Source: Escherichia phage MN04. Taken from it: a stretch of 64,000 nt of DNA. The translations under genes were made by a program, and so were the position numbers. The notes beneath the pieces were generated by a model, which had not been told where the DNA came from, searched no databases, and was given only the letters and a program-made list of their open reading frames with translations. Shown one piece after another: positions 2,877 through 62,784 of the stretch. The DNA lies in the sequence record MT129654.1. One strand, given 5' to 3'. Numbering within the stretch: the first letter of the stretch is position 1; every line of letters begins with the position of its first letter.

Positions 2877-3467
2877 ATGAACGGTTTATTTAACCAAACT
2901 AACACTACCAACTTTATCTTAGAGGTTAGTGACTCAGGAATGACGCAGTCATTCAAATTGAACGTACAAGATGTAACACTACCAGGTATCCATATTCCGG
3001 TCTCAGACGTCCCAGGATCGACCCAAGGTATAAACCGTGCTAAACTGCCAGGTTCTACTGTAGAATTCGACCCTTTGATTGTGAACTTTCTTGTAGACCG
3101 CGAATTGAAATCATGGCTGGACGTTTATAAATGGATGCTATCATTAAACAACTATGTAACACATGAATCCGAAGCCTGGCATCCTAAAGGTCAGCCTGAG
3201 GCTATCACCCTCCACATCCTTGATAACAACAAACAGAAAATCGTAATGAGCATTCATTACTACGGTGGTTGGCCATCAGACCTTTCCGAGATTCAGTACT
3301 CTTATAAAGAAGATTCCGACCCTGCGATAATCGCTACAGCAACATTCAACTTCAAATCGTTTGCTGTAGAAATAGATGGTACAATAGTTACAGGTCGTCC
3401 ACAAATTGATTCGTATGCCGAACAACGTGTGGCTCGTATGTCTATGCATCCATCTATGAGAAAATAA
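2877..3467 (+). CDS. 3: tail completion and sheath stabiliser gp3 (196 aa; alternative start at 2937 would give 176 aa)
   Basis: ATG 2877 preceded by SD tagga; stop overlaps gp1 start; synteny. Confidence 0.65.
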   Translation: MNGLFNQTNTTNFILEVSDSGMTQSFKLNVQDVTLPGIHIPVSDVPGSTQGINRAKLPGSTVEFDPLIVNFLVDRELKSWLDVYKWMLSLNNYVTHESEAWHPKGQPEAITLHILDNNKQKIVMSIHYYGGWPSDLSEIQYSYKEDSDPAIIATATFNFKSFAVEIDGTIVTGRPQIDSYAEQRVARMSMHPSMRK

Positions 3468-4220
3468 TGAAACTAATATCAATTGTAGGAATCAAACGTA
3501 GCGGTAAGGATACCGTTGCTAACTATGTAATTGAGAATATGGATTCCGTAAAATTCCAACTCGCTGGTCCTATTAAAAAGTATCTGGCTGAAGCTTATGA
3601 ATACATATCTGATGACCCTGTATTCGACCGTAGCTATATGCCTAAACTTGATTTTAACTGTTTTGAAGGTATCGGTTACGACCGTGAAGAAATCCTTCCT
3701 TTAAAACCATATGATGTGGTTGATATTTTTGAACATGCTATTGTTAAACTGAATAATATCCTTCCTATTCCAGGAATTGATGTTCTTACCGCATATCATT
3801 ATGGTCTTACCCCGGTCCAGTATCTGTCTGAAGAAACAAAAGACCAGCTATTTGAAGTAATAAATAAAAATAACAATTGGTCAGTACGTCGTCTCATGCA
3901 GACCCTTGGGACTGATATTATTGTTAACCAATTTGATAAGATGTATTGGGTTAAGTTGTTCGCTTTAGACTATTTTGATAAAATATACTCTGATGCGAAA
4001 TACTATGTCGTACCTGATGTTCGTCAAACACATGAAATTGATTCGCTCAGAGCGATGGGTGCTACGATTATTCATGTAGTTCGCGCTGAAACCGGTCAAG
4101 TACAAGACTCGCACATCACTGAAGCGGGTCTACCAATTTTACCTGGTGACGTTGTTGTTGAAAATAACGGCACTCTTTCTGAACTATACACCACTATTGA
4201 TAAATTATTAGGAAATAAAA

Positions 4221-4228
<8 letters not shown>
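3467..4228 (+). CDS. 1: deoxynucleoside monophosphate kinase gp1 (253 aa)
   Basis: N-terminus MKLISIVGIKRSGKDTVANYV...QLAGPIKK matches remembered T4 gp1 (P-loop GxKRSGKDT). Confidence 0.9.
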
Positions 4229-28395: not shown

Positions 28396-28403
28396 TATTT
28401 ATA
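28396..28403 (-). promoter_or_regulatory. late promoter TATAAATA (minus strand) for the collagen-like gene
   Basis: Plus-strand tatttata is TATAAATA on minus, about 22 nt upstream of ATG at 28373. Confidence 0.55.
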
Positions 28404-28409
28404 AAAGTA

Positions 28410-28450
28410 GTTTACACTTTCGTAGAGCATGTTATTATGGACCTATCAAA
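28410..28450 (+). promoter_or_regulatory. T4-type early promoter cassette
   Basis: GTTTAC 28410-28415, -10 TATTAT 28433-28438, then ggacctatcaaa. Confidence 0.55.
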
Positions 28451-34906: not shown

Positions 34907-35223
34907 CTATTGAAAATGAATTAGATGTTGATGCTGTTTTAAGCGAAATCATTGAAGACCATGATGCGTTTACTGAATCATACGAGTTTGAATTTTCGGA
35001 CTACCTGGTTCCGGTTGAATTAGGCGAATGGACACAAACCGGCAAATACCAATATCGCCAGGCAATTTATTTCAGCAAAAAACATAATGTGCATGTGGCT
35101 GTAAACGAAACTCGTACCGGCTCTTATCATACCGACTGGGACCATATGGTCCCGACTGTTGAACTGGTTAAGCTCCAAGAACGTGTCGTAACCCAAACTA
35201 TCCGAGAATGGATTACGCTATAA
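34903..35223 (+). CDS. hypothetical protein (106 aa)
   Basis: ATGA-coupled ORF. Confidence 0.45.
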   Translation: MTIENELDVDAVLSEIIEDHDAFTESYEFEFSDYLVPVELGEWTQTGKYQYRQAIYFSKKHNVHVAVNETRTGSYHTDWDHMVPTVELVKLQERVVTQTIREWITL

Positions 35224-35340
35224 AACCATGGTATACCGCTCGATGGGAAACCGTCGAGCCAGAGGAACCGGTTTACAACGATTCCGAAATAGAGTATAAT
35301 GAACCTTCAAACAATGATTTAATCGATATGGAGTTTGGAT

Positions 35341-35514
35341 ATGAGTACCAAAATTGAAATTGGCCGTCATAAAGGCCGTCTGATTGAACATTCGCTTTAC
35401 GAGTTATCGGATTCAGGTTCTTTACCTGACCTAGAGTCTGATTTGATTAAAGCTGCAGCCGATTATATCCATTGGCTTGAAGCGCAACTCCGCTTTGCTG
35501 ATAAGGCGTTCTGA
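35341..35514 (+). CDS. small protein (57 aa)
   Basis: ATG 35341; stop overlaps next ATG; under the ORF-track cutoff. Confidence 0.4.
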   Translation: MSTKIEIGRHKGRLIEHSLYELSDSGSLPDLESDLIKAAADYIHWLEAQLRFADKAF

Positions 35515-35699
35515 TGAAAACTGTATTAGTCTATACTGAAAAGTTAAATGGCGACAAGGTATGGAAACTTCTTATCAAAGGAAGTCCTAATGACCAGTTT
35601 ATGGCTACCTGCGTAGGATTATACACTCGTCCTACCAAAAAGATGATTCGTCAATTTAAACGGTTACACCGTATGTTTTACGGTACATTTGAAAAATAA
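35514..35699 (+). CDS. hypothetical protein (61 aa)
   Basis: Coupled ORF. Confidence 0.45.
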   Translation: MKTVLVYTEKLNGDKVWKLLIKGSPNDQFMATCVGLYTRPTKKMIRQFKRLHRMFYGTFEK

Positions 35700-35703
35700 T
35701 AAA

Positions 35704-35730
35704 TACCCTTATCTAATAATGGTAAGGGTT
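35704..35730 (+). promoter_or_regulatory. hairpin immediately upstream of gene 49 (possible translational control or terminator)
   Basis: Inverted repeat accctta/taagggt 5 nt before ATG 35735; T4 gene 49 is known to be regulated by RNA structure. Confidence 0.4.
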
Positions 35731-35734
35731 TATT

Positions 35735-36208
35735 ATGTTGTTGACCGGCAAATTATACAAAGAAGAAAAACAAAAACTTTATGATGCACAATGTGGTAAG
35801 TGTTTGATTTGTAAACGTGAATTAAACCCTGATGTTCAAAGTAACCACCTTGACCACGACCATGAATTGAGCGGGCCAAAAGCTGGTAAGGTTCGTGGTT
35901 TACTATGTAACCTGTGCAATGCTGCAGAAGGACAAATGAAGCATAAGTTCAACCGTTCTGGTCTTAAAGGTCAAAACGTTGACTACCTCGAATGGTTAGA
36001 GAATTTGCTGGTCTATCTGAAATCTGATTACACTGAAAACAATATCCATCCTAATTTCGTTCCTGATAAAACCAAAGAGTTCAGTAGATTAGGTAAGGAA
36101 GAAATGATTGCTGAAATGCTTTCGCATGGAATGACTTATAATGAATCTGACACAAAGAAACAAATGGTCGATTCATTTAAAAAACAACTGAGGAAATCGC
36201 TTAAATGA
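35735..36208 (+). CDS. 49: endonuclease VII, Holliday-junction resolvase gp49 (157 aa)
   Basis: MLLTGKLYKEEKQKLYDAQCGKCLICKRELNPDVQSNHLDHDHE... near-identical in pattern to remembered T4 gp49. Confidence 0.92.
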   Translation: MLLTGKLYKEEKQKLYDAQCGKCLICKRELNPDVQSNHLDHDHELSGPKAGKVRGLLCNLCNAAEGQMKHKFNRSGLKGQNVDYLEWLENLLVYLKSDYTENNIHPNFVPDKTKEFSRLGKEEMIAEMLSHGMTYNESDTKKQMVDSFKKQLRKSLK

Positions 36209-36302
36209 TTAATTTTTATGCCTTAACCGAATCTATGAATGATATTATCCGGCGCATGGGTGTTGAGTATCCTGCTCAATGGTTATTTGTTGTAACTAAT
36301 AC

Positions 36303-36530
36303 ATGGACTATCGTATGAATAAATTTCGTAATGCTGCTTCTGATATCCTGGCCAATATTACATTTGTCCTGTTTATTGTGTGCCTTTTAATCCTGGTTAT
36401 CCCATTTGGATTGCTGTTTGTAATGATTGGTGCGCTGAGTACTGAAAAGGGTCTTGAAGGGTCTGAGTTCGAAAAACGAATCCAGGCTGTGCATAGTGTT
36501 ATTGCTAAAATGATGAAGGTGAAAGAATGA
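36303..36530 (+). CDS. membrane protein (75 aa)
   Basis: Hydrophobic ORF. Confidence 0.45.
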   Translation: MDYRMNKFRNAASDILANITFVLFIVCLLILVIPFGLLFVMIGALSTEKGLEGSEFEKRIQAVHSVIAKMMKVKE

Positions 36531-36823
36531 AACGTTTTGAAGAGTATGTAGCTACTGATTGGGCGGCTTGGGACAAGTTTGGCCAAGAATGGTACTTCCA
36601 TGACTGTGACCTGAACCCGGAATTCTTTATCGGTAAGGAAGATGACCTTAAAGATATCTATGCTCTGTCAGAGATTCACGGTATTAAACCTACCGTCTAC
36701 TTCTCTTTTGATGATATGGGATTCCTTATCCAGATTTACATCCCGTATGGAACTAATGAAGACGAAGTTATCAAAACTTGGGACTACCAAGGAGTTATTT
36801 CCTGTGGACCAAAAGTTAACTAA
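36527..36823 (+). CDS. hypothetical protein (98 aa)
   Basis: ATGA-coupled ORF. Confidence 0.5.
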   Translation: MKRFEEYVATDWAAWDKFGQEWYFHDCDLNPEFFIGKEDDLKDIYALSEIHGIKPTVYFSFDDMGFLIQIYIPYGTNEDEVIKTWDYQGVISCGPKVN

Positions 36824-37121
36824 AATTGAGATTTATGGTATCCCTGAGACAGTCATGCGCTGTCCAGGGTGCATTGCAGTTCTATCGCTCCTAAATTCCC
36901 TTTCTATCCCACATACTTTCTATCCTGTGATTAACCAGACGCCGTCAGGCGCAGTATATGACAAGCCTCTTATAGTATCATTGGCCAAACGTGCTGGCTT
37001 CAAGAGCTTAGCTATACGCTATCCTGTAATCTTTGTTGATAATAAGAAAATAGAAAATATTCCTGCCTTCAAATCCCTTTTGATTGAGCTTGGCTATGAC
37101 CGAGATTTAATTGAAGATTAG
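36804..37121 (+). CDS. glutaredoxin/thioredoxin-fold protein (NrdH/NrdC-like, about 105 aa, probable GTG start)
   Basis: IEIYGIPETVMRCPGC...YPVIFVDNKKI...FKSLLIELG; GTG 36804 preceded by SD ccaaggag; no in-frame ATG before the CxxC motif. Confidence 0.5.
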   Translation: MDQKLTKIEIYGIPETVMRCPGCIAVLSLLNSLSIPHTFYPVINQTPSGAVYDKPLIVSLAKRAGFKSLAIRYPVIFVDNKKIENIPAFKSLLIELGYDRDLIED

Positions 37122-37122
37122 T

Positions 37123-37165
37123 ATTTACTTCCTCTCCTCATGTGTTATAGTCTATCCTATCAACA
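37123..37165 (+). promoter_or_regulatory. early promoter variant with long hairpin
   Basis: ATTTAC -35, TATAGT -10, inverted repeat cctcatgtgtt/aacacatgagg, cctatcaa core. Confidence 0.45.
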
Positions 37166-37180
37166 CATGAGGAGAACATT

Positions 37181-37363
37181 ATGACCATCCAAGATAAAGA
37201 AATTAAAGCCGACCAGTATTATTTGGTAAATGGACGTGCGGTTCGTGTAATTGCTGCTAGTGATTCAGACGTATGGTATCGTGTACTAGACCATAAAAAT
37301 ATTCCATTGATGGTATGTGACGGTAGCTTGTTTTGTTCGATAGCTAAGGAAATTAAATTATGA
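37181..37363 (+). CDS. hypothetical protein (60 aa)
   Basis: ORF with SD gaggagaa. Confidence 0.45.
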   Translation: MTIQDKEIKADQYYLVNGRAVRVIAASDSDVWYRVLDHKNIPLMVCDGSLFCSIAKEIKL

Positions 37364-37614
37364 GCCTGAAATTACATTCAATGAAAAATGTCATCACCCT
37401 TAATCTTGATGATGAGCGCCTGATTTTTCTCACCGTCACTGATAAGAATATTGAAATTGCAAATGGTCCTAAGACTTATTGCTGCCCAGTGAAGAATTGG
37501 AAGCATGTAACCTTTTTGACCCTGGCCGACCGTCTGAAAGACCTTAAGTTGGATTTGGATATCAAAGATATCCAGTACATTAAAAATCTTATTGGATACA
37601 AACTGTTGAGGTAA
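37360..37614 (+). CDS. hypothetical protein (84 aa)
   Basis: ATGA-coupled ORF. Confidence 0.45.
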   Translation: MSLKLHSMKNVITLNLDDERLIFLTVTDKNIEIANGPKTYCCPVKNWKHVTFLTLADRLKDLKLDLDIKDIQYIKNLIGYKLLR

Positions 37615-37616
37615 CT

Positions 37617-37910
37617 ATGGGTAAAACTATCCGTCGTAAAGAATTGCCATCTAGAGATTTTAATTGCATTGCTAGACGTAAAGCACCTGATGGCGTATCG
37701 GAAGAAACTTTGAATGAAAATATCTTCCGGTCAGATAAATGGAAACGCTTTAGCGGTGTTGATTCTGAAGTTAAGAATGAAATGAATCGCCAACTTCGTA
37801 AAGAAGTGAGAAAGCTGAAAAAAGATGTTTACAACGACGATGAACCTGATTACAATACTTCTCATCGAGTTGCAAAACGTAAATCAAACGAGTGCTATCG
37901 TTACAGCTGA
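37617..37910 (+). CDS. hypothetical basic protein (97 aa)
   Basis: ORF with SD gaggt. Confidence 0.45.
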   Translation: MGKTIRRKELPSRDFNCIARRKAPDGVSEETLNENIFRSDKWKRFSGVDSEVKNEMNRQLRKEVRKLKKDVYNDDEPDYNTSHRVAKRKSNECYRYS

Positions 37911-37917
37911 GGAAAAT

Positions 37918-38049
37918 ATGAATATCAAACGTATGCTTTTTAAACAAGGATTATACACCTTAAATGTTGCTCCAAAAGGCGATACGACTAAGTGGTCAGT
38001 AAATGACTGGATTGAATTTATTGATGAAAACGGCAACTGGAAAATTTAA
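37918..38049 (+). CDS. small protein (43 aa)
   Basis: ATG 37918 after the conserved ctgaggaaaatatg initiation region. Confidence 0.4.
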   Translation: MNIKRMLFKQGLYTLNVAPKGDTTKWSVNDWIEFIDENGNWKI

Positions 38050-38250
38050 ATGAATCCTGAATCTAAATTATCACAACGAATTGCTGAAGCCCGTCGTCAG
38101 TTCTTTGAAAATATGGTAGCTCAAGGTATTGATGACGAAGTTTTTCTAAACTGGTTTTGGAATAACAAATATTCAAAATGTGCAGGAGCAATATTAATAT
38201 CGGCCGCAATGATGTATGAAGGTTGGAAAGGCGCACTAGCACAAAAATAG
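38050..38250 (+). CDS. hypothetical protein (66 aa)
   Basis: TAAATG-coupled ORF. Confidence 0.45.
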   Translation: MNPESKLSQRIAEARRQFFENMVAQGIDDEVFLNWFWNNKYSKCAGAILISAAMMYEGWKGALAQK

Positions 38251-38285
38251 TTTACAAACTCTTGGGACCAGAGTATAATGGTCCC
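38250..38285 (+). promoter_or_regulatory. T4-type early promoter, -10 inside a hairpin
   Basis: GTTTAC 38250-38255, TATAAT 38274-38279 flanked by gggacc/ggtccc. Confidence 0.6.
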
Positions 38286-38319
38286 CACGGATTATAAATT
38301 TTAAACTGAGGAAATTATT

Positions 38320-38649
38320 ATGTCACAAGCTATTAAAAACGTACTGAACTCTTTCGCTTTCGATAAAGTTAATGAACTGATGAAAACTGGCTTTGTAACT
38401 CCTCAGGTTCTTGACCAATGGGTTGCTGAACTGTTACCAATCATGCACTCTAAAGACCAAAAAATTGGTAAGAACGGTATTCGTGAAATCCTGGTTCAAT
38501 ATATTCTTGATGAGTTTGATGTTGCTGCCTTCGGTGTTGAATCTAAAGCTTGGCACCCAGGTGAAATCACAGACAAAACCATCCGTCGTATGAAGAACCA
38601 ACGTAAGAAAAAATTCGTTGACCTGAAAATTGTTAAGGCTGCGAAATGA
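38320..38649 (+). CDS. hypothetical protein (109 aa)
   Basis: Same 25-nt initiation region as the gene at 30454. Confidence 0.5.
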   Translation: MSQAIKNVLNSFAFDKVNELMKTGFVTPQVLDQWVAELLPIMHSKDQKIGKNGIREILVQYILDEFDVAAFGVESKAWHPGEITDKTIRRMKNQRKKKFVDLKIVKAAK

Positions 38650-38912
38650 TTAAAATAAAACTCTCTAATTACGATAAAAACTTGGAAATGATTGCTATGA
38701 AAGAAGAACTCCTGAATGATGTCCGCTTTACAGGTTATGCAGTCCAATTTAATGGTGATGGGGCTCTCCAGATTGAAGGTGACCACTTTATTATCGAATA
38801 TGAATTTAAACGGTACTGGCTATACGCTAAAGATGAAGTTGGCGGTATTGATTACGTCGATGAGTTTGATAATCTTGATGATGCATTAGAAGGAGCTCGA
38901 TTCCTACAATGA
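38646..38912 (+). CDS. hypothetical protein (88 aa)
   Basis: ATGA-coupled ORF. Confidence 0.45.
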   Translation: MIKIKLSNYDKNLEMIAMKEELLNDVRFTGYAVQFNGDGALQIEGDHFIIEYEFKRYWLYAKDEVGGIDYVDEFDNLDDALEGARFLQ

Positions 38913-39172
38913 AACCCATATCCACCACCCTCGCTTATGAAGGTCTCGGATTTTTCTTAATAGATAACTGTATGGATGTTGAGTTTGTTTGTGGTGAGAC
39001 TTCTTTAGTATGGAAGTCTCATATTTCCAAATACAACCATCGGGATTATCCGGAACTTTTTAAAGAATTTTGCGGATATATGTCCGAACATGGATGTACT
39101 GATACAATTTCTTATCCCGAGTTCATACAAATCCTTGAAACAGTATTTCAGGCTTATTGCTTACTCCGTTGA
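38909..39172 (+). CDS. hypothetical protein (87 aa)
   Basis: ATGA-coupled ORF. Confidence 0.45.
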   Translation: MKPISTTLAYEGLGFFLIDNCMDVEFVCGETSLVWKSHISKYNHRDYPELFKEFCGYMSEHGCTDTISYPEFIQILETVFQAYCLLR

Positions 39173-39200
39173 TGCTTTAAACGGGTCTCCAAATACTATG
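39173..39200 (+). promoter_or_regulatory. candidate MotA-dependent middle promoter for gene 55
   Basis: MotA box aTGCTTTA 39172-39179 with TACTAT about 14 nt downstream. Confidence 0.45.
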
Positions 39201-39238
39201 ATATAATAGACCTATGATTTGAGTTATCTGAGGTAACA

Positions 39239-39796
39239 ATGACCGAAATTAAACTGACTAAAAATAACTATGTAAATAATAAGGAGCTTCTGAAAGCCAT
39301 TACCCAGTGGAAAACGGAACTCCGAGAAAATACCGACCCTAATAAAATAGTTCGTCAGAACGACGTTATCGGCTTGGCTATTATGCTCATTGCTGAAGGC
39401 CTTTCTAAGCGTTTCAACTTCTCCGGATATACCCAATCTTGGAAGCAAGAAATGATTGCTGATGGAATCGAAGCCTCTATTAAAGGTCTTCATAACTTCG
39501 ACGAAACAAAATACGACAACCCACATGCATATATCACTATGGCTTGTTTTAATGCCTTTGTTCAGCGTATCAAGAAAGAACGTAAAGAAATGGCAAAGAA
39601 ATACAGCTACTTCGTCCATAACGTTTATGACGCCAATGACGACGACATGGTAGGTATCGCAGATGAAACTTTTATCCAGGATATTTACGACAAAATGACT
39701 CAGTATGAAACCTCTTTAGTTAAAGCGCCAGGGTCTGATAAGAGCGCTGAATCTAAAGTTGGTGAGCTGGATTTTTTATATGGAACTCAAGATTAA
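39239..39796 (+). CDS. 55: late-transcription sigma factor gp55 (185 aa)
   Basis: ...[55 protein letters not shown]... matches remembered T4 gp55. Confidence 0.92.
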
Positions 39797-40007
39797 CCTG
39801 GTAGGCCTTTTAGAAGAAGTAGATGGAGAGTATTCGGCAATTCCTTATGTTCTTAAAATGTATCTTAAGGATATTGCCAAGCTTCCTATTGTAATAGACC
39901 CAAAACACCCTGATTCGGTAGAAATTAAAGCTGAAAAAGGAACATTAACTTATAACTATCACGTTACCGACGAAGATTTTTATATAAAACTGAATTACAA
40001 GGATTAA
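39780..40007 (+). CDS. hypothetical protein (75 aa)
   Basis: ATG 39780 overlapping gp55 3' end. Confidence 0.4.
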
Positions 40008-40008
40008 T

Positions 40009-40320
40009 ATGCAAAGCCATGACATTTCTCAATTGACTGATGAGCAAATTGAAGAAGCCCAGCAACGTTTAGAAGAGCACAATATTAAAGAAGCCAATTC
40101 GCAAGCGGCTAAGATTCTTAAGAAGAATGCTCGTGAAATCCGTCGTTTAAATCTCCATGCCCAAGGCGCTGTACTTGAAAACAACTTTGAAGCATATAAG
40201 TACGCTTTAATTAAATTACGCGGTATTTACCGTCAACCTGTTACTGATGAACTTGTTCAATTGATGTGGGAATCTACCCGCAAACAAATTTGGGAAATCG
40301 TCAATGGCTCTAGTAAATAA
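40009..40320 (+). CDS. hypothetical protein (103 aa)
   Basis: TAATATG-coupled ORF. Confidence 0.45.
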   Translation: MQSHDISQLTDEQIEEAQQRLEEHNIKEANSQAAKILKKNAREIRRLNLHAQGAVLENNFEAYKYALIKLRGIYRQPVTDELVQLMWESTRKQIWEIVNGSSK

Positions 40321-40504
40321 ACCCTTTAAACGGCTTCTTATTGGAGCCGCCTTCAGACTTCGCTCATACGGTAATATTTGTATTAAGCAGACCGAAACCG
40401 AATATAAAATGGTTGGGCAGTATTCCGATGAAATTTTTCGGATTGAGCCTGTAGCCAAGGTTTGGGTGGATTCACATCAACTTAAGAAGTGGTGGCAACG
40501 ATGA
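40304..40504 (+). CDS. hypothetical protein (66 aa)
   Basis: Overlapping ORF. Confidence 0.4.
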   Translation: MALVNKPFKRLLIGAAFRLRSYGNICIKQTETEYKMVGQYSDEIFRIEPVAKVWVDSHQLKKWWQR

Positions 40505-40592
40505 TAACATGGACAGGTGGCTAATGAAAGACGAACATCCGGATTTTTAAGCTATGAATGACGAATACGAAAAAGTTTAAGAGGTTTTATGA

Positions 40593-40766
40593 ATGACGAA
40601 TTCGATGGATTTTGATAAGATTAAATCTGACAAAAATGAGATGATACTTAAATTTGAAGCTGCTCGTATTAAAGCGGAAAATGAAGGTATTATTACCTAT
40701 AAGCCTATCAAGTTCAGGTCTTCTCATGAACCTCTGTATGGTGTATTAATTGGTAAAGGAGCTTAG
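40593..40766 (+). CDS. small protein (57 aa)
   Basis: ATG 40593 after SD gaggtt; followed by terminator; under the ORF-track cutoff. Confidence 0.35.
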   Translation: MTNSMDFDKIKSDKNEMILKFEAARIKAENEGIITYKPIKFRSSHEPLYGVLIGKGA

Positions 40767-40778
40767 GCTCCTTTTTTG
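40757..40778 (+). terminator. rho-independent terminator
   Basis: Hairpin ggagc-tta-ggctcc followed by TTTTTT. Confidence 0.65.
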
Positions 40779-40820
40779 CTTTATATTCGGATGATAAAAT
40801 GAACCAACTGAGGAGAACAT

Positions 40821-40964
40821 ATGGAATTACTTTTAGGATATGTCGTGTTATTCATGGCATTCTACACATTCACACGAGCCTGTTGGATAGGATTCTTTTC
40901 TACTCCTGATGGGTTCATCTCAATAATTTTATTTTGCATTGCGATAACGGTGCTCGGCTTATGA
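40821..40964 (+). CDS. small membrane protein (47 aa)
   Basis: ATG 40821 after SD gaggagaa; hydrophobic; stop overlaps gp47 ATG. Confidence 0.4.
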   Translation: MELLLGYVVLFMAFYTFTRACWIGFFSTPDGFISIILFCIAITVLGL

Positions 40965-41983
40965 AAATATTAAACACAGGTGACTGGCACCTTGGAGTGA
41001 AGGCTGATGATGTGTGGGTACAAAATATCCAACGTCAAGGTATCCAAGACGCTATCAATTATTCTAAAGCAAATGGTATTACCGTGTGGATTCAATACGG
41101 TGATATCTTTGACGTTCGTAAAGCAATTACTCATAAGTGTATGGAATTCGCTCGCGAAATCTCTGATTTGCTTAAAGCTAATGGCATTACCATGTATACC
41201 ATTGTTGGTAATCATGATATGCACTACAAAAACACCCTAACTCCTAACGCTGCTTCTGAAGTTCTCGGTAAATACGACCATATCAAGGTTATTGAGAAAC
41301 CTACTACGGTTAACTTTGATGGCACCGAAATTGATTTGATTCCATGGATATGTGAAGAAAACACGACTGATATCATGGACCATATCAAAAATACCACAGC
41401 AGATTTCTGTATTGGACATTGGGAATTAAATGGTTTCTATTTCTATAAAGGAATGAAATCTCATGGTTTAGAACCTGATTTCCTTAAAAAGTATAAGCAA
41501 GTTTGGTCAGGCCACTTCCACACTATTTCTGATGCAGCAAACGTCAAGTACATTGGTACTCCATGGACCCTGACTGCAGGTGATGAGAACGACCCTCGTG
41601 GTTTCTGGATTTTCGATACCGAAACTCATAAAATGGATTTCATCATTAATGAAACCTGTTGGCATCGTAAGATTCATTATCCTAATGCGACTATCGATTA
41701 CAAAGATTTTACAAATATCGCAGTTCGTGTTATAGTCGATAAAATCGATGACGGCCTTACTAAGTTCGAATCAGAGCTTGAAAAGGTTGTTCACTCTTTA
41801 CGTATTGTGTCTAAGGTAGATAATAGTGTTGATATCGATGATTCTGAAGAGGAAGATGAAGTTAAATCCCTCTTGGATATGATGTATGATTATATCGACG
41901 CCCTTCCTGATGGCCACACTGAAGAAGACGTTAAAGCCCTTAAGACTATGGCCGCACAACTTTATAATGAGGTTACACGATGA
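40961..41983 (+). CDS. 47: recombination endonuclease subunit gp47 (Mre11-like, 340 aa)
   Basis: MKILNTGDWHLGVKADD...GNHDMHYKN...GHWELNGFYFYKGMKSHG matches remembered T4 gp47. Confidence 0.92.
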   Translation: MKILNTGDWHLGVKADDVWVQNIQRQGIQDAINYSKANGITVWIQYGDIFDVRKAITHKCMEFAREISDLLKANGITMYTIVGNHDMHYKNTLTPNAASEVLGKYDHIKVIEKPTTVNFDGTEIDLIPWICEENTTDIMDHIKNTTADFCIGHWELNGFYFYKGMKSHGLEPDFLKKYKQVWSGHFHTISDAANVKYIGTPWTLTAGDENDPRGFWIFDTETHKMDFIINETCWHRKIHYPNATIDYKDFTNIAVRVIVDKIDDGLTKFESELEKVVHSLRIVSKVDNSVDIDDSEEEDEVKSLLDMMYDYIDALPDGHTEEDVKALKTMAAQLYNEVTR

Positions 41984-42243
41984 CTTTAGATGAATTCAAA
42001 AAATCGGGACTTGAACTGGAACACGACTGTATAGTTATTGACGATGATGGGCAACCTAGTACAATTAAGTTCTGGTTTGAAGCCGTGAGCACTCGTGATA
42101 CCGGCGAGCTTATTAAAGTTTATGTTGCTACCGATTGGGCTGTAGAATTTAGCTTTAATGTAATGGTAGATGATACTCCAGAAACATTAATTCATATGGC
42201 TGAATCATGCATCAAGGATGCTTATAACGATGAAGACTTTTAA
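41980..42243 (+). CDS. hypothetical protein between 47 and 46 (87 aa)
   Basis: ATGA-coupled ORF. Confidence 0.45.
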   Translation: MTLDEFKKSGLELEHDCIVIDDDGQPSTIKFWFEAVSTRDTGELIKVYVATDWAVEFSFNVMVDDTPETLIHMAESCIKDAYNDEDF

Positions 42244-51204: not shown

Positions 51205-51240
51205 GCAATAGAAATTTATTAAAAATAGTGTATAATGTAC
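51200..51240 (+). promoter_or_regulatory. candidate promoter for the modification operon (-10 only)
   Basis: TATAAT at 51231-51236 preceded by TG; no clear -35. Confidence 0.3.
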
Positions 51241-51264
51241 CTACATTCACTTGAGGAACAGATA

Positions 51265-52938
51265 ATGAAAAAGGTTGTTATTTTAGGCGCAGGTCTTGGC
51301 TCACGGTTGTATCCAATTACTAACGAAATCCCGAAGGTATTGGTTAACTATAAACAACATACGGTATTAAAGCATTTGTATGATTTGTATAGTAACCAAT
51401 CAGATGAAATTATTCTGGTTATTCACAGCAAATTTAACGACCTCGTTAAAGGCTATATTAAATCCATTAACATGATTACTGGTGATAAGCCTAAATTCAC
51501 TATTCGTAACGTTGATGTTGCTAATGGTTCAGCTCATGCTATCGATTGCATTGCCGAAGATATCATTGGCCATAACGTCCTGTTTAACTGGTGTGACATC
51601 ATTCCTGAAGGTCATAAAGTTGAGTGGGGTAACGACTACTGTTATACCTATGGAACTGACTGTCGTTTTACATTTGAAGAACCGTACTTACGTGAAATTG
51701 GCACTGGTGGTGGCGTAGTTGGTTTATATCAGGTGGCTAATTGGACAGGTTTCGACCGTTCTAATTACGGTGAAGACCTTGCTGATAACCTGGATTCAAT
51801 GGTCTATTTGACTGAACGTAAACTGGACTTTGTAGTTGATGTCGGTGACAAATTGAAACTGGCTAAGGCCCATGAAGATTCTGAAATTAACCGTGAATTT
51901 AATAAATTAGAATTCACCGAGAATCTGGCTATTAAAGTACCAACTAACGAATTAGGTAAAGAAATTCAATCTAAAGAAATCAATTGGTATAATTCTATTG
52001 ATTCTGAATTCGTTCCTAGCATTGTAGACTTTTCTCCAGGCGAATTCATTAAAATGGAACGTATCTTTGGTCGGACCATGGCAGATGCCTACCGGTTTAT
52101 GTCCAAAGAAACTAAAGTCCTCATGGTTTATAAGGTCATTAGTGCATTACGTTCATTCGGTGGAACTATTGATAATCCGTCCGATGAACAATGGTATTCC
52201 GATGTTAAGAAAGAAGTATTGGACAAGGTCCTTATTCGTAATGCTTCTATTGCCGGATTGATTGAAGGCTTTGCTCCACAAGGCATTACCCATGTTAACG
52301 ATTTCAAAGTAGGCGACCCTGAAAAACTTCTCCGCCATGCACTAGAAATTCTGTCTGAACATAAAGAACCGTACCAACTTATTCATGGCGACCCACACTA
52401 CAGTAATATTATGCTGTCGGACGAAGGTGATATTAAAATCATCGACCCACGTGGTTATTTCGGTAATAGTTCTAAAGGCCCTGCGATTTATGATGAAGCT
52501 AAGGTGCTTTATTCTATCGATGGCTATGACAAATTTAACTCAGACCCTCTATGGGGTGGATTAACCCGTAACGGAACTCGTGTATTCGTTGATATTGAAA
52601 AGGTTATGCCTTTAGACGATATCCCTATGTGCACATTTAAGCACAAGCTCTGGATTGCTGTTATTTGGATGGCTCTGGCAGGTTACTTTAAGAATAACCC
52701 TCTGAAAGCTCTGGGTGCTTATTATAACGGTTTGTACCAACTGAGTGTGCTGCTGAAGCGGCATCCTCGTAAGCGTAAGCTTATTACAGGTGAATTTGTC
52801 GATGAAGTTCGTGACCCTATCACGGCCCAAATTATTACTCGTTGTCCTGATAAGTGGGTTTTGCTTGACCAGGAAACTGGTGTAAAATATAAACCTACAG
52901 GTTCTACTGAACTCCACAAACAATGGAAGAAAATTTAA
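51265..52938 (+). CDS. bifunctional sugar-1-phosphate nucleotidyltransferase (N-terminal) / APH-fold kinase (C-terminal), 557 aa
   Basis: N-terminus VVILGAGLGSRLYPITNEIPKVLV (GxGxRxxPxT...PKxLV signature of RmlA/LicC-type NTases); C-terminal HGDPHYSNIML and IIDPRGYFG (Brenner and DFG-like motifs of choline/aminoglycoside/anomeric-sugar kinases). Confidence 0.65.
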   Translation: MKKVVILGAGLGSRLYPITNEIPKVLVNYKQHTVLKHLYDLYSNQSDEIILVIHSKFNDLVKGYIKSINMITGDKPKFTIRNVDVANGSAHAIDCIAEDIIGHNVLFNWCDIIPEGHKVEWGNDYCYTYGTDCRFTFEEPYLREIGTGGGVVGLYQVANWTGFDRSNYGEDLADNLDSMVYLTERKLDFVVDVGDKLKLAKAHEDSEINREFNKLEFTENLAIKVPTNELGKEIQSKEINWYNSIDSEFVPSIVDFSPGEFIKMERIFGRTMADAYRFMSKETKVLMVYKVISALRSFGGTIDNPSDEQWYSDVKKEVLDKVLIRNASIAGLIEGFAPQGITHVNDFKVGDPEKLLRHALEILSEHKEPYQLIHGDPHYSNIMLSDEGDIKIIDPRGYFGNSSKGPAIYDEAKVLYSIDGYDKFNSDPLWGGLTRNGTRVFVDIEKVMPLDDIPMCTFKHKLWIAVIWMALAGYFKNNPLKALGAYYNGLYQLSVLLKRHPRKRKLITGEFVDEVRDPITAQIITRCPDKWVLLDQETGVKYKPTGSTELHKQWKKI

Positions 52939-53321
52939 TGTCGCATCGAGTAGAAAATAAGCCACATTTATGTTTTGATATCGATAACACAATCACGATT
53001 TGGAACCATGACCGTGATTATGAGAACTTTAAACCGGACACCGAAATGGTGTCCATGATTAATAAGCTTTATGATGAAGGGTACGAGATTACATTGTTCA
53101 CCGCGCGTGGCATGACTTCATGTGGCCCAGGTCGAATCTTGGTTGAAGTAGTTCCTGCATTGGTTAAGAACCTTGAAAAGATTGGATTGAAATATCATAA
53201 TCTGCTTACACATAAGCCGAGTTATACTTTTATCATCGATGACCGAGCAATCCGTCCCGACCACTTTAAAGAAATGGTTCGTGAAGGAACTCTTGATAGT
53301 TATAAGGCCTATCATCCATGA
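52938..53321 (+). CDS. HAD-superfamily phosphatase (127 aa)
   Basis: Motif I CFDIDNTIT (DxDxT), motif II TLFTAR, motif III HKPS, motif IV IIDDRA; TAATG coupling. Confidence 0.65.
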   Translation: MSHRVENKPHLCFDIDNTITIWNHDRDYENFKPDTEMVSMINKLYDEGYEITLFTARGMTSCGPGRILVEVVPALVKNLEKIGLKYHNLLTHKPSYTFIIDDRAIRPDHFKEMVREGTLDSYKAYHP

Positions 53322-53854
53322 ATCCAAAAATCATTGTTATAGACGGCCCGGATAATTCCGGGAAGTCCACTTTAATTAAAAATCTGTTATCCAATAAGAA
53401 ATACCGCCTTATTGATTTTCCTAAAAAGATTAATGGTAAGTGTATTTCATTAGGAACTGATAACGATAAGGCTTTAGTTGAAACTCTGTATAAGTTTTTA
53501 GACCCTAATTTCGTTTATATCCTTGACCGTGGTTATCCAAGTAATATTGTTTACTCAGGATTCCTTCGTGGTGAAATGGACCCTTATGTAGAACTGGAAG
53601 ATTGGAAAGGGTTTAAATCTGAATTTAACGTTATCGAGGTTATTTTAACTCGCAATCCATTAGACGAAGACTTCGAAGACGACCTTATTAAATTAACCAA
53701 AGATGAGTTCAACCTAACTATCCGGCAATACGAAACATGTTTTGAAAACGTGTTTAAAATCTTAAATCATGACGGCCATAATAATTTGCTTAATGTTGAT
53801 ATGGTAGAATTAAAACGTCTGAACGAATATATTGAAAATAAGGTGAATAGATGA
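53318..53854 (+). CDS. P-loop nucleoside monophosphate kinase, thymidylate-kinase family (178 aa)
   Basis: IVIDGPDNSGKSTL Walker A and ILDRGYPS...VYSG (DRY-like motif); ATGA coupling. Confidence 0.6.
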   Translation: MNPKIIVIDGPDNSGKSTLIKNLLSNKKYRLIDFPKKINGKCISLGTDNDKALVETLYKFLDPNFVYILDRGYPSNIVYSGFLRGEMDPYVELEDWKGFKSEFNVIEVILTRNPLDEDFEDDLIKLTKDEFNLTIRQYETCFENVFKILNHDGHNNLLNVDMVELKRLNEYIENKVNR

Positions 53855-54549
53855 AACACATTACCGCTGTTAGTTTTGAAAATGCATTTAAACAAATGAA
53901 CGAAGAAATCCTGGAAGCTCCACAGTTTGCAGTTGATTCTCGTATCGGACGTTGTTATGAAATTGGTTCTGCTTCGGTAGAAGTACTGGATGCAAGCACC
54001 TATAAATTCACCGATCCTCGTATTAATCGTATTAGTTATGAATATGCCGAATCTTTCTGGAAGTTTATGATTTCTGGTGGTACTGACGCCGCCGAAGCAT
54101 TTAAGGAATACCCTAATGTTGCTAAGTTCATTGATAAGCCGAAAAGTGACGTATTGCCTGCAAACTTCAACACTTTCTATGGACCTCGAATTGTGGCCCA
54201 ACTCCCAGCCTTACTTAAAGAGCTTAAAGAAAAGCCTAACTCAAGACGCGTTGTGTTCCAGATTCTCCAAGAACAAGACCAAGCCCTCCTTGATTCTGAC
54301 GAATCCTTAGAATATCCTTGCACCGATTCGGTAACGTATTATATTCGTGATGGACGTCTGTATGCACACACTCATATGCGTTCACAGAACTGTGCTATTG
54401 TTATGCAGCTGGATTTCTATCTGCAGGGTAAACTGATGGCATTTATTGCTGAACAGTGCGGTGTCGGTTTAGGTACATATTCCCACACCATGGTAAGTGC
54501 ACACGTGTTTGAACGTGATTTTGACTACGTCCGAGGTTTCCTGAAATGA
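53851..54549 (+). CDS. 42: pyrimidine hydroxymethylase of the thymidylate-synthase fold, positional and sequence counterpart of T4 gp42 dCMP hydroxymethylase (232 aa)
   Basis: NSRRVVFQI, YPCTDSV (catalytic Cys), MRSQNCAIVMQLDF with Asp at the position that is Asp in T4 dCMP hydroxymethylase and Asn in ThyA. Confidence 0.75.
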   Translation: MKHITAVSFENAFKQMNEEILEAPQFAVDSRIGRCYEIGSASVEVLDASTYKFTDPRINRISYEYAESFWKFMISGGTDAAEAFKEYPNVAKFIDKPKSDVLPANFNTFYGPRIVAQLPALLKELKEKPNSRRVVFQILQEQDQALLDSDESLEYPCTDSVTYYIRDGRLYAHTHMRSQNCAIVMQLDFYLQGKLMAFIAEQCGVGLGTYSHTMVSAHVFERDFDYVRGFLK

Positions 54550-55439
54550 GTTTGTTTATCGTTCCTATTTTCAGTATGCGTAGTTACGAAACAGGTGAAT
54601 ATGCCGTCCTTAAGGACGGCAATTTTCAACTCCATTTAAATCGTGCTCGTCCAGGTGATTATCTGGCTTATCCTAGAAATTCGAGCGATATCAAAGAATG
54701 CATTGAATTATTCCCAGATCTGAATTTCGTACCACTTTGGTATAAAGAAAATGCTTATGAAACCCGTAAACATTTCTGGTCTGAAAATGAGTTTGTAGTC
54801 GATTCACTAATCGAATACTACGATTGCTCAGGACTGGTAACCGATATCACTGGTTACGATGGTGCTCATACTGTACAATTCAACTTTAATATCACAATGG
54901 ACCCTGAAGTTCCTCGTTATTATATCGACGAGTTCATTGATATTGATGTGGCTTCAGTTGAACGTTCACTTTATACTACAGTCCTGAATCAATGCCAGAA
55001 AGACGTCTTGGTGTCACGAGGTGCATCCTCTGATAAGATTTTTGTAGACCAAAAGGTAATTAATCCTGCAGTAATTGAGCGTTACTCTGAAGGTCTAGCG
55101 CCTATTAAAATTGATGGTATTTTCCATCCATTCCGTATTTCAGATAAGTGTTATCAATTCGAAAGAGTTGTAGACCAAGCTGCCGCTGAAGGTGCTCGTC
55201 TTTATATCACCGATCCGAATGATTCATTTAAGCGCGAAGACTATCGTCCTGATGTAGAGATTATTAAATTCAAACCAAGTAAGGTTGAATATTATCAAAT
55301 TCTGAAATCAAGACCACATATCATTTATCATGAGAACCCAGGTTTAGTATTCCATCCTGGTCTGGCTGAATTCATTTATTTCGGTGCCAATATTCATTCT
55401 GAATACGAAATGCCACGTTATGAGGACGTAGTATGCTAG
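54546..55439 (+). CDS. unassigned 297-aa protein in the slot where T4 has beta-glucosyltransferase; candidate DNA sugar-transferase
   Basis: ATGA-coupled to the hydroxymethylase; no resemblance to remembered T4 bgt. Confidence 0.5.
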   Translation: MSLFIVPIFSMRSYETGEYAVLKDGNFQLHLNRARPGDYLAYPRNSSDIKECIELFPDLNFVPLWYKENAYETRKHFWSENEFVVDSLIEYYDCSGLVTDITGYDGAHTVQFNFNITMDPEVPRYYIDEFIDIDVASVERSLYTTVLNQCQKDVLVSRGASSDKIFVDQKVINPAVIERYSEGLAPIKIDGIFHPFRISDKCYQFERVVDQAAAEGARLYITDPNDSFKREDYRPDVEIIKFKPSKVEYYQILKSRPHIIYHENPGLVFHPGLAEFIYFGANIHSEYEMPRYEDVVC

Positions 55440-62262: not shown

Positions 62263-62784
62263 ATGGCTCATTTTAATGAATGTTCTCAACTGATTGCCGG
62301 TGCCGATAAAGCTGAAGAAGCTTATTTTAATGCTCTGATTCACGAAGATAAAGACCCTCTGCAGGTTATGCTTGATATGCAGAAATCTTTGCAGGTTCGT
62401 TTAGCTAAAGATAAGCCTGAATATAATCGTCATCCTGATGATTTGGCCACTGCGGGTGAAGTTGTCGATTGGCTTCGCAACCAGAAAGATTATATTGATG
62501 ACGAATTCCGTGAACTTCTGACTTCTCTTGGTGGTATGAGTAATGGTGAAAAAGATGCATCTGCAGTATGGAAGCCTTGGAAAGCTCAACATGCTGAACG
62601 TCGTGAAACCCTGATTAACGATTTGTCTCCTGAAGACCAGCTCGAAATTAAATTCGAAATGATTGATATTCTGCACTTTGTTCTGAATATGTTCCAGGGT
62701 CTTGGACTGACCGCTGAAGAAATCTTTAAACTGTATTACCTTAAAAATGCCGAGAACTTTGCTCGTCAAGACCGAGGTTATTAA
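62263..62784 (+). CDS. 56: dCTP pyrophosphatase gp56 (MazG-like, 173 aa)
   Basis: MAHFNECSQLIAGADKAEEAY...PLQVMLDMQ...DDEFRELLTSLG...EEIFKLYYLKNAENFARQDRGY matches remembered T4 gp56. Confidence 0.92.
   Translation: MAHFNECSQLIAGADKAEEAYFNALIHEDKDPLQVMLDMQKSLQVRLAKDKPEYNRHPDDLATAGEVVDWLRNQKDYIDDEFRELLTSLGGMSNGEKDASAVWKPWKAQHAERRETLINDLSPEDQLEIKFEMIDILHFVLNMFQGLGLTAEEIFKLYYLKNAENFARQDRGY

Follow-up and report, generated by a model that had tools for sequence, protein, structure and literature searches.

The window, that is, the whole 64-kb stretch of DNA analysed here (~38% of a ~170-kb genome), belongs to a Dhakavirus, a T4-like coliphage of the JS98 group. Its content is probably best explained jointly by a JS98-type block extending from gene 49 to gene 47, without the nrdDG and a-gt cassettes, and by an arabinosylation pathway of the RB69/HY126 type, so that cytosines are very probably arabinosylated via 5-hydroxycytosine. 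The main points have already been published (Petrov et al., 2010; Dwivedi, 2013; Lee et al., 2026). Some small details appear to be new: the absence of nrdD and nrdG exactly between ATGA junctions, an unannotated 37-aa ORF, and the start of nrdH in JS98.

The flagged interval has 96.6% DNA identity to phage JS98, with the same gene order, and would represent the JS98-type (Dhakavirus) form of the T4 early/middle block. It is ~93% coding, on the + strand throughout, and 4752 bp separate the stop of gene 49 from the start of gene 47, versus 9934 bp in T4 and 7266 bp in RB69. Between these two genes lie gene 55 and 17 small ORFs, nearly all having counterparts in T4 or RB69 (55.8, nrdH, 55.6-55.1, a-gt.5-a-gt.2, 47.1):

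35735..36208, +: gene 49, endonuclease VII, 157 aa; 88% aa identity to T4 gp49; Pfam Endonuclease_7 (E 3e-20) and Endonuc-dimeris (E 1.5e-26)
36205..36318, +: conserved 37-aa ORF in the place of nrdD-nrdG; phrog_3350 over its full length, E 8e-24
36315..36530, +: 55.8-like predicted membrane protein, 71 aa; 42% identity to T4 gp55.8
36527..36823, +: RB69 ORF082c-like ORF, 98 aa; 48% identity to RB69; phrog_2749, E 3e-47; no match in T4 (tblastn)
36804..37121, +: nrdH, glutaredoxin/thioredoxin fold, CPGC motif, 105 aa, GTG start; 61% to T4 NrdH; phrog_22 thioredoxin, E 1.5e-13, Pfam Glutaredoxin just E 0.016
37181..39172, +: run of small early ORFs, the eight that follow (tblastn against T4/RB69; JS98 annotation); Pfam DUF matches, E 1e-20 to 1e-45
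37181-37363, +: 55.6
37360-37614, +: RB69 ORF079c-like/DUF7290
37617-37910, +: 55.5/DUF5499
37918-38049, +: 55.4/DUF5484
38050-38250, +: 55.3/DUF5490
38320-38649, +: 55.2/DUF7570
38697-38912, +: 55.1/DUF5495
38909-39172, +: RB69 ORF072c-like/DUF7200
39239..39796, +: gene 55, late-transcription sigma factor, 185 aa; 78% identity to T4 gp55
39780-40007, +: a-gt.5 (T4 namesake; PHROG match)
40009-40320, +: a-gt.4 (T4 namesake; PHROG match)
40304-40504, +: a-gt.3 (T4 namesake; PHROG match)
40593-40766, +: a-gt.2 (T4 namesake; PHROG match)
40755..40782, +: putative terminator-like hairpin, 8-bp stem and T-run (consensus scan and sequence), spanning the a-gt.2 stop codon (40764-40766)
40821..40964, +: 47.1, small predicted membrane protein, 47 aa; 80% to T4 gp47.1; phrog_6693, E 1e-30; its stop overlaps the start of gene 47
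40961..41983, +: gene 47, SbcD/Mre11-like nuclease subunit, 340 aa, ATG start; 71% identity to T4 gp47

The 55.8-like ORF has an alternative ATG upstream, at 36303, and phrog_1930 starts at residue 5 of this longer version.

The backbone 49, 55.8, nrdH, 55.6-55.1, 55, a-gt.5-a-gt.2, 47.1, 47 is thus common to T4, with 41-93% aa identity (41-57% for a-gt.5 to a-gt.2). The T4 order assumed in the original prediction is correct, namely 49, nrdD (with its intron and I-TevII), mobC, nrdG, 55.8, nrdH and onwards to 55, then a-gt.2, mobB, a-gt, 47.1, 47 at the distal end. T4 has the class III reductase NrdD/NrdG, the a-gt and b-gt glucosyltransferases and the gp42 dCMP hydroxymethylase. In the window, the 12 ORFs located between 49 and 55 code for 37-109 aa and the five between 55 and 47 for 47-103 aa, making 109 aa the maximum, gene 55 excepted, whereas T4 a-gt has 400 aa and NrdD ~605 aa. 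Five ORFs, none large enough for a glucosyltransferase, is precisely what had been announced. When T4 a-gt, b-gt, NrdD and NrdG and RB69 NrdD and NrdG were used as tblastn queries against the window and the complete JS98 genome (E<=10 for JS98), the best E value was 0.027 and the others at least 0.5. These matches are noise, none being longer than 79 aa and none lying at the expected loci; nrdD, nrdG, a-gt and b-gt have no counterpart in either sequence, and the JS98 annotation does not contain the four genes either. The proposal that the interval differs from T4 in lacking these genes is borne out, with one correction: of the three nrd genes that T4 carries there, nrdD and nrdG only are missing, and nrdH is kept.

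The T4 cassette nrdD (with intron and I-TevII)-mobC-nrdG is missing from a sharply delimited place. DNA homology to T4 and RB69 ends at 36208, the gene 49 stop, and picks up again at 36315, the 55.8 ATG; protein homology to RB69 restarts at the 37-aa ORF, which RB69 and EcS1 have just 3' of nrdG; nrdD and nrdG are thus exactly what is missing. The 37-aa ORF overlaps its neighbours at both ends, by ATGA with the gene 49 stop and by ATGA with the 55.8 start. The gap left by the two genes thus falls precisely between two 'ATGA(TTAA)' stop/start junctions, with translational-coupling overlaps retained. The ORF itself, without annotation in JS98 RefSeq, RB69 and T4, is found in 59 phage records with 58-100% aa identity. 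It is homologous to an unannotated RB69 ORF in the nrdG-55.8 gap (tblastn E 2e-4; gapless alignment), with which it shares the start ATGATTAA; EcS1 ORF071 and ORFs in kv_tblp5 and IME523 are further homologs.

Absence of nrdD and nrdG, for which the original prediction gave no explanation, is a trait of the JS98-type lineage, tabulated already in 2013, when JS98, JS10, IME08 and VR7 were listed with class I ribonucleotide reductase only (Dwivedi, 2013; PMC3653736 supplement). JS98, JS10 and IME08 (Dhakavirus, to which the VR5/VR7 group may be added) likewise have no nrdD, nrdG, a-gt or b-gt. JS98 has genes for the aerobic class Ia enzyme NrdAB, in a part of its genome that the window does not cover. 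With nrdD and nrdG missing, NrdAB would be the sole reductase of the phage, which, without oxygen, might depend on that of its host. The order lacking nrdDG (49, a short ORF overlapping the 49 stop, a 55.8-like ORF, glutaredoxin) is shared by Klebsiella phage kv_tblp5 and Enterobacter phage IME523 (Kanagawavirus), although these have other hosts and far lower DNA identity outside conserved genes.

We infer that the nrdDG event was a loss, from distribution rather than from a rooted phylogeny: nrdD-nrdG occupy the identical site beside gene 49 in Tequatrovirus, Mosigvirus and Kagamiyamavirus, being kept there in RB69, T4 and EcS1, and a direct junction from 49 to 55.8 is uncommon, occurring in 47 of 783 matching phage records. 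That the difference from T4 is due to genes gained by the T4 lineage, and not to losses in JS98-type phages, is possible, if somewhat doubtful. A gain is plausible for a-gt, which is confined to T-even-type phages (PMC2993671) and is flanked in T4 by the homing endonuclease gene mobB, while RB69 passes directly from 47 to a-gt.2; furthermore, mobB, mobC and I-TevII are mobile elements entirely absent from JS98 (PMC2993671).

Beyond the window, the absence of these genes from phage MN04 is deduced from the published tables and from JS98, to which the flagged region is 96.6% identical. T4-like genomes are mosaic, and the closest relative varies among parts of the window. A 251-aa ORF at 27618-28373, on the minus strand, faces only a short gap in JS98. 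Still, it is extremely improbable that nrdD/nrdG or a glucosyltransferase gene reside in the remaining part of the genome, since the complete JS98 genome has none, JS10, IME08 and VR7 have class I only, and the fixed syntenic sites of these genes in T4, RB69 and EcS1 all fall inside the window, where other sequence fills them.

At the other end of the interval, the mobB-a-gt cassette of T4 is missing between a-gt.2 and 47.1, which are ~54 bases apart, with the terminator-like hairpin at the site of mobB and a-gt in T4. The 47-55 stretch of RB69 is also free of a-gt, but RB69 retains nrdD and nrdG beside gene 49. Glucosyltransferase genes are absent from both JS98 and RB69 (Petrov et al., 2010; PMC2993671). 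Having neither a-gt nor b-gt nor a close relative of them, the phage would not make glucosyl-hydroxymethylcytosine of the T4 kind. The suggestion that its DNA is not glucosylated holds to this extent; the picture of an unglycosylated DNA is very probably wrong. Indeed, 10 kb downstream of the interval, the T4 42/b-gt locus (50586-55439, from imm to uvsX) carries an RB69-type arabinosyl-5-hydroxycytosine cluster, listed here with two genes located elsewhere in the window:

51235..52938, +: bifunctional sugar nucleotidyltransferase (N-terminal) and kinase (C-terminal), 567 aa, AfhE / RB69 gp52:53-like; 41-44% identity to RB69 p053 and p052; Pfam NTP_transferase (E 3e-8) and APH (E 1e-5); PDB 1jyk LicC match
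52923..53321, +: HAD-type phosphatase, DxDxT motif, 132 aa, AfhF / RB69 gp51-like (62%); PDB 9iqw (E 5e-54) and 1xpj (E 4.5e-12)
53318..53854, +: P-loop nucleotide kinase, 178 aa, RB69 gp45-like (38%); weak Pfam kinase/AAA matches
53851..54549, +: thymidylate-synthase homolog, predicted 5-hydroxy-dCMP synthase, 232 aa, in the T4 gene 42 position; PDB 9iqu/9iqc, E 2e-126
54546..55439, +: GT-B glycosyltransferase, 297 aa, RB69 gp46:47 'arabinosyltransferase 1'-like (65-69% identity), in the T4 b-gt position
62263..62781, +: gene 56, dCTPase/dUTPase; 68% to T4 gp56, 100% to JS98 gp56
3467..4228, +: gene 1, dNMP kinase; 100% to JS98 gp1

The same cluster is annotated as orf38-orf44 in JS98, and RB69 (Mosigvirus) and HY126 have homologs of all five of its proteins in the DNA polymerase-to-uvsX region, with 38-80% identity. 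Dhakaviruses have been placed by synteny among the carriers of 5hodC/arabinosylation clusters (PMC13326640). kv_tblp5 and IME523 have a cluster of this type too, and their MRSQN/EYPCT thymidylate-synthase homologs share 84-87% identity with that of the window; kv_tblp5 differs in retaining a gp50-like 'peptidase'.

Gene content, homology, signature residues and fold are here matters of observation, and they bear on the nature of the base. Plain 5-hydroxymethylcytosine without sugar was one option left open in 2010 for JS98 and RB69, JS98-type phages having a gene 42 allele and no glucosyltransferase (Petrov et al., 2010; PMC2993671). It would make the gp42-like protein a divergent dCMP hydroxymethylase, and this protein does match Pfam Thymidylat_synt, as well as T4 gp42 at E 2e-9. 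However, the sole gp42-like protein of the window is 79.7% identical to RB69 gp48, versus 25-27% to T4 gp42, and RB69 gp48 is a 5-hydroxy-dCMP synthase by experiment, with D169N as diagnostic (PMC13326640). Aligned with E. coli ThyA, it displays C146 and the diagnostic residues D169N, N177D and L143E, its signature residues being identical to those of RB69. Among assayed homologs, only 5hodCMP synthases had Asn at ThyA position 169, and each of a further nine D169N homologs yielded 5hodC when tested (PMC13326640). With sugar-activation genes and a GT-B transferase gene adjoining, sugar-free 5-hydroxymethylcytosine is very improbable.

A 5-hydroxycytosine pathway would share with T4 its logic, cytosine being altered as a mononucleotide and the sugar added afterwards. 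Activities being transferred from RB69, DLP3 and HY126, gp56 would yield dCMP while removing dCTP, and the thymidylate-synthase homolog, flavin- and O2-dependent, would convert dCMP to 5-hydroxy-dCMP. The product would be brought to the triphosphate for replication by gp1 and host kinases, as the gene 1 counterpart of RB69, gp159, phosphorylates 5-hydroxy-dCMP (PMC13326640). The kinase/uridylyltransferase and the HAD phosphatase would turn arabinose-5-phosphate into UDP-arabinofuranose, and the lone GT-B transferase, of GT-B fold in its predicted structure, might then add arabinose to the 5-hydroxyl. This protein is predicted to be a functional analogue of b-gt acting on another base with another sugar; homology between the two is not detectable by sequence.

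Arabinose, one per base, is what we infer for the sugar. RB69, with its gp55 arabinose-5-phosphate isomerase, gp50, gp49 and second transferase gp3, has mono- and di-arabinosylated bases; the lineage of the window is without these genes, no homolog of gp55, gp50 or gp3 (p055, p050 and p003) being present in the window or JS98, and a single arabinose is predicted. In phage Thanatos, one syntenic ara-GT accompanies mono-arabinosylation (PMC13326640). These absences, together with an AfhE-like protein merely 41-44% identical to that of RB69, mean that the base could be 5-hydroxycytosine bearing a sugar other than, or not only, arabinose. E. coli, however, produces arabinose-5-phosphate via KdsD/GutQ for Kdo synthesis, so that a phage isomerase is not required; lacking one, the phage probably draws this compound from its host. 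With the phosphatase and transferase 62-69% identical to the RB69 enzymes (whose PDB series 9iqu/9iqc/9iqw is closely matched) and Dhakaviruses counted among the syntenic arabinosylation clusters, such a departure from arabinose is unlikely. The searched literature yielded no chemical analysis of DNA from a Dhakavirus, and the modification is predicted, not observed.

As for nrdH, the glutaredoxin-fold protein does start, as proposed, at GTG 36804. An AGGAG Shine-Dalgarno sequence lies at 36790-36794, 9 bases 5' of this codon; the whole of T4 NrdH (102 aa) can be aligned from 36813 onwards, with 61% identity over 103 aa; and T4 nrdH starts with GTG too (VKQNKIEVYGIP...). JS98 RefSeq, where the 37-aa ORF is unannotated, differs by placing the start at a downstream ATG, 36855 here, which would cut off the strand preceding the CPGC motif; the JS98 nrdH start thus appears to be truncated.

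Escherichia phage JS98 (Dhakavirus, Tevenvirinae) is the best megablast match to positions 35000-42000 (identity 96.6%, query coverage 97%), followed by JS10, IME281 and about 50 further JS98-type genomes; the JS98 counterpart of the window extends from roughly 78 kb down to 14 kb. The gene content between genes 49 and 47 was established from an ORF map, tblastn with T4 reference proteins, Pfam and PHROG scans, and a reverse search of the window ORFs against T4 and RB69. The plus strand carries every gene of this interval, as well as those of a cluster of RB69-type DNA modification genes at 50586-55439, the place of 42 and b-gt (the DNA beta-glucosyltransferase gene) in T4.

Genes of the interval between genes 49 and 47
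35735-36208, plus strand: gene 49
36205-36318, plus strand: ORF of 37 aa
36315-36530, plus strand: 55.8
36527-36823, plus strand: RB69 ORF082c-like ORF
36804-37121, plus strand: nrdH
nrdH to gene 55, plus strand, in order: 55.6, RB69 ORF079c-like, 55.5, 55.4, 55.3, 55.2, 55.1, RB69 ORF072c-like
39239-39796, plus strand: gene 55
gene 55 to gene 47, plus strand, in order: a-gt.5, a-gt.4, a-gt.3, a-gt.2, 47.1
from 40961, plus strand: gene 47

Five small ORFs, exactly the number originally proposed, lie in the stretch between genes 55 and 47. The distance separating the stop codon of gene 49 from the start codon of gene 47 is 4752 bp in the window; in T4 it is 9934 bp and in RB69 it is 7266 bp. 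The T4 surplus comprises nrdD (intron and I-TevII included), mobC, nrdG, mobB and a-gt (the DNA alpha-glucosyltransferase gene); three ORFs common to the window and RB69, but absent from T4, make up for part of the difference. A sigma-70 promoter scan of the interval returned fewer sites than shuffled sequence (10 vs 19.2). The start of 55.8 is ambiguous: the JS98 annotation takes an upstream ATG at 36303, whereas ATG 36315, which overlaps the stop of the 37-aa ORF as ATGA, is where both the PHROG profile match and the homology to T4 and RB69 set in. Upstream of gene 49, the 161-aa Lon protease inhibitor of T4, pin, has two short fragment matches only, at 35371-35505 and 35634-35687, in a region (35371-35687) broken into several small ORFs, as are orf76-orf78 of JS98; the pin proteins of RB69, EcS1, kv_tblp5 and IME523, at 138-150 aa, are shorter than that of T4.

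Genes for the anaerobic (class III) ribonucleotide reductase were said to be missing between genes 49 and 55, and this holds well beyond that stretch: with T4 and RB69 NrdD and NrdG as tblastn queries, neither the window nor the complete genome of JS98 gave a match better than E 0.5, and nrdA and nrdB are the only reductase genes annotated in JS98. A scan of the other large window ORFs likewise brought up no hidden reductase or glycosyltransferase. This agrees with an earlier survey, in which JS98, JS10, IME08 and VR7 have a class I enzyme only while T4 and RB69 have classes I and III (Dwivedi et al., 2013; PMC3653736).

At the gene 49 junction, DNA homology to T4 and RB69 ends exactly at the gene 49 stop (36208) and restarts at the 55.8 ATG (36315), and the 106 bases in between encode the 37-aa ORF, with an ATGA overlap at each end. 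Might this spacer be a vestige of the missing genes? When its DNA was aligned locally with the junctions of T4 and RB69, no nrdD or nrdG relics emerged, the scores being at shuffle level, and alignments of the 37-aa protein to NrdD and NrdG also stayed at that level. The spacer has another explanation, since the RB69 nrdG-55.8 gap contains an unannotated homolog of 37 aa (tblastn E 2e-4) that aligns without gaps, both proteins starting ATGATTAA. EcS1 ORF071, right after nrdG, is a further homolog, Klebsiella phage kv_tblp5 and Enterobacter phage IME523 have short homologs right after gene 49, and a one-base difference in a T-run splits the equivalent ORF of the T4 reference. The frame is open in 59 JS98/VR5/VR7-type genomes (amino acid identity 58-100%), and phrog_3350 covers it full length. 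Several Tevenvirinae genera keep in it the motif G-x-E-[FY]-[PY]-[AS], and keep its place, with 55.8 on one side and nrdG (or gene 49) on the other; the JS98, RB69 and T4 reference records leave it without annotation, the RB69 and T4 counterparts lying on the minus strand at about 44984-44871 and at 28330-28446, respectively.

Thus, T4, RB69 and EcS1 have the layout 49, nrdD, nrdG, small ORF, 55.8, whereas the window has 49, small ORF, 55.8. Compared in this way, the layouts differ by exactly nrdD plus nrdG, apparently removed between two junctions with ATGA as common microhomology. A gain in the other phages would account for the same difference. However, the direct junction of 49 to 55.8 is found in only 47 of the 783 phage records matching the query, and representatives of three genera (T4, RB69 and EcS1) carry the nrdD-nrdG cassette at gene 49, which favours loss in the JS98-type lineage as the inferred direction.

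The neighbouring nrdH was thought to start at GTG 36804, and AGGAG nine bases upstream supports this. The full-length alignment to T4 NrdH begins at 36813 (61% identity over 103 aa), and nrdH of both T4 and RB69 also starts with GTG, at the orthologous codon. The protein matches phrog_22 (E 1.5e-13), its E-value against Pfam Glutaredoxin (0.016) being below threshold, and it displays a CPGC motif, a CxxC preceded by the first beta strand of the fold. The JS98 RefSeq start, equivalent to ATG 36855 ('MRCPGC'), would remove that strand. The public JS98 annotation is therefore truncated, and the GTG start is the right one. The annotated RB69 NrdH stops early (…QRYCRV) when compared with T4, EcS1 and the window, as if frameshifted near its C-terminus, so that both public records look faulty.

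Coordinates of nrdH
36804-37121: window
40589-40855: JS98 annotation, NC_010105
44089-44361: RB69 annotation, NC_004928

As for glucosylation, the presence of agt or bgt elsewhere in the genome had been named as what would overturn the original prediction; tblastn recovered neither from the window or from complete JS98. T4 a-gt gave noise only (its best window match had E 0.027 over 36 aa, and its best JS98 match E 0.073), and the best E-values for b-gt were 3.0 and 4.4. The syntenic slot of a-gt, from the a-gt.2 stop to 47.1, is reduced to 54 bases, with a terminator-like hairpin and its T-run standing between the two genes; RB69, too, is without a-gt at the gene 47 end. The slot of b-gt is filled by a 297-aa protein (54546-55439) resembling RB69 gp46:47. 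No dCMP hydroxymethylase of the gp42 type, with Asp at the position of ThyA residue 169, was found: the sole homolog, matched by T4 gp42 in tblastn at 54106-54546 (25% identity), carries Asn at 169 and reaches only 25-27% identity to gp42. Next to these genes, an exact 13-base direct repeat, ATGAATGACGAAT, has one copy just before the a-gt.2 start (40554-40566) and a second one, 35 bases further on, that overlaps this start (40589-40601). The tblastn alignment of T4 a-gt.2 begins at 40524, upstream of the annotated ATG at 40593, and the arrangement suggests that a small duplication reshaped the 5' end of this gene.

The explanation for the missing glucosyltransferases resides in the modification cluster, between imm and uvsX: judging from its genes, the phage very probably arabinosylates 5-hydroxycytosine. 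The original prediction that its DNA is not glucosylated stands as far as genes for glucose transfer are concerned, and it missed this predicted system. Lee et al. (2026; Nucleic Acids Res, PMC13326640) reported that mono- and poly-arabinosylated 5-hydroxycytosine takes the place of cytosine in RB69 and in Acinetobacter phage DLP3, and that RB69 gp48 converts dCMP to 5-hydroxy-dCMP with oxygen from O2, as seen by 18O2 labelling. They found Asn at the position of Asp169 of Escherichia coli ThyA to be diagnostic of 5-hydroxy-dCMP synthases, proposed from synteny that Dhakaviruses are among the further groups with this pathway, and refer to a flavin mechanism for 5-hydroxy-dCMP synthesis in phage HY126 (PMC13326640).

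Main proteins of the modification cluster (plus strand, 50586-55439)
567 aa: N-terminal sugar nucleotidyltransferase (Pfam NTP_transferase) and C-terminal APH-type kinase
132 aa: HAD protein, AfhF/RB69 gp51-like, 62% identity to gp51, DxDxT motif
P-loop kinase: 38% identity to RB69 gp45
53851-54549, 232 aa: thymidylate-synthase homolog, 79.7% identity to RB69 gp48
54546-55439, 297 aa: 65-69% identity to RB69 gp46:47

Alignment of the synthase with E. coli ThyA (MG1655), T4 gp42 and RB69 gp48 places RSQN where ThyA has RSCD and gp42 RSND, i.e. the diagnostic D169N; N177D and L143E are also present, Cys146 is kept, and the motifs read MRSQN and EYPCT. The synthase matches PDB 9iqu/9iqc at E 2e-126; for the HAD protein, the PDB matches are 9iqw (E 5e-54) and 1xpj (E 4.5e-12). 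Entries 9iqu, 9iqc and 9iqw share a numbering series with 9iqz, labelled 'phage HY126 glycosyltransferase'. The 567-aa protein, AfhE/RB69 gp52:53-like, is 41-44% identical to both RB69 halves, and its activity is predicted from this likeness. The 297-aa protein had no Pfam family and no PDB match by sequence; structure prediction followed by fold search identifies it as a putative GT-B glycosyltransferase, kin to the T4 enzymes by fold alone, and its modelled fold and synteny with the synthase correspond to those of 'arabinosyltransferase 1'.

Three RB69 components, gp55 (arabinose-5-phosphate isomerase), gp3 (a second, chain-extending transferase) and gp50, lack homologs in the window and in JS98 alike; the rIIA.1-39 gap of JS98 measures about 590 bp. 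Phage Thanatos has one syntenic transferase and mono-arabinosylated DNA (PMC13326640); the isomerase and the second transferase are thus accessory rather than universal features of the pathway. By likeness to Thanatos, we predict one arabinose per base. Arabinose-5-phosphate would come from host KdsD/GutQ, a source well established in E. coli metabolism. The literature searched contained no chemical analysis of any Dhakavirus DNA, and Bas46 and Bas47, considered as experimentally characterised close relatives, are Mosigviruses, not Dhakaviruses. Inside the cluster, a 166-aa ORF (50704-51204, plus strand; JS98 orf43) with a lipoprotein-like N-terminus (…LLSGC…) lies between an RB69 ORF054c-like ORF and the kinase/nucleotidyltransferase gene; its JS98 annotation names no similar RB69 ORF.

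Could the oxygen-dependent base chemistry be linked to the loss of the anaerobic reductase? If all cytosine is replaced via an O2-requiring 5-hydroxy-dCMP, the phage would not replicate without oxygen, so that nrdD and nrdG would be jobless and free to be lost. Consistent with this, nrdDG is absent at the gene 49 junction in three of the five sampled 5-hydroxycytosine lineages (Dhakavirus/VR5-type, Kanagawavirus and Klebsiella kv_tblp5-type), and T4 keeps it; kv_tblp5 and the Kanagawavirus IME523 combine a D169N synthase with absence of nrdD and nrdG beside gene 49. By contrast, nrdDG persists alongside the cluster in RB69 and EcS1, which rejects a strict link. Moreover, synthases of the three nrdDG-less lineages are the most similar (84-87% identity, vs about 79% to RB69), and these lineages may descend from one loss. 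With these exceptions and a possible single event, we regard the connection as improbable.

To be sure, the finding is in itself of little weight, as both absences are known JS98-type traits. Petrov et al. (2010; PMC2993671) noted gene 42 and 56 homologs without glucosyltransferase genes in RB69 and JS98, raising the question of another modification, and Thomas et al. (2018) pointed out the IME08 homolog of RB69 ORF53_52c; with Dwivedi et al. (2013) and Lee et al. (2026), both absences and the true explanation of the second were already published. What appears new is minor and of annotation level: the apparent excision of exactly nrdD-nrdG between ATGA junctions, the conserved ORF of 37 aa left out of the annotations, and the correction to the start of nrdH, details which also inform how T4-like phages gain and lose cassettes at gene-junction microhomologies. 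More generally, unmodified or merely hydroxymethylated DNA should not be assumed for a T4-like genome devoid of a-gt and b-gt, an absence which here marks a predicted arabinosyl-5-hydroxycytosine system. This modification alters the set of restriction, CRISPR and type IV defences that a phage evades, and bears on the behaviour of its DNA in sequencing, cloning and phage therapy. JS98-type phages have been candidates for oral phage therapy, which makes a correct prediction of their DNA chemistry useful. Elsewhere in the window, a minus-strand ORF (27618-28373, 251 aa) combining a collagen-like repeat with an Sf6-type tail-needle knob (Pfam Phage_tail_NK, E 5e-32) has early genes of the other strand on either side, one nrdC.11-like and one nrdC.10-like; it looks like an insertion relative to JS98, which has only about 420 bp there.
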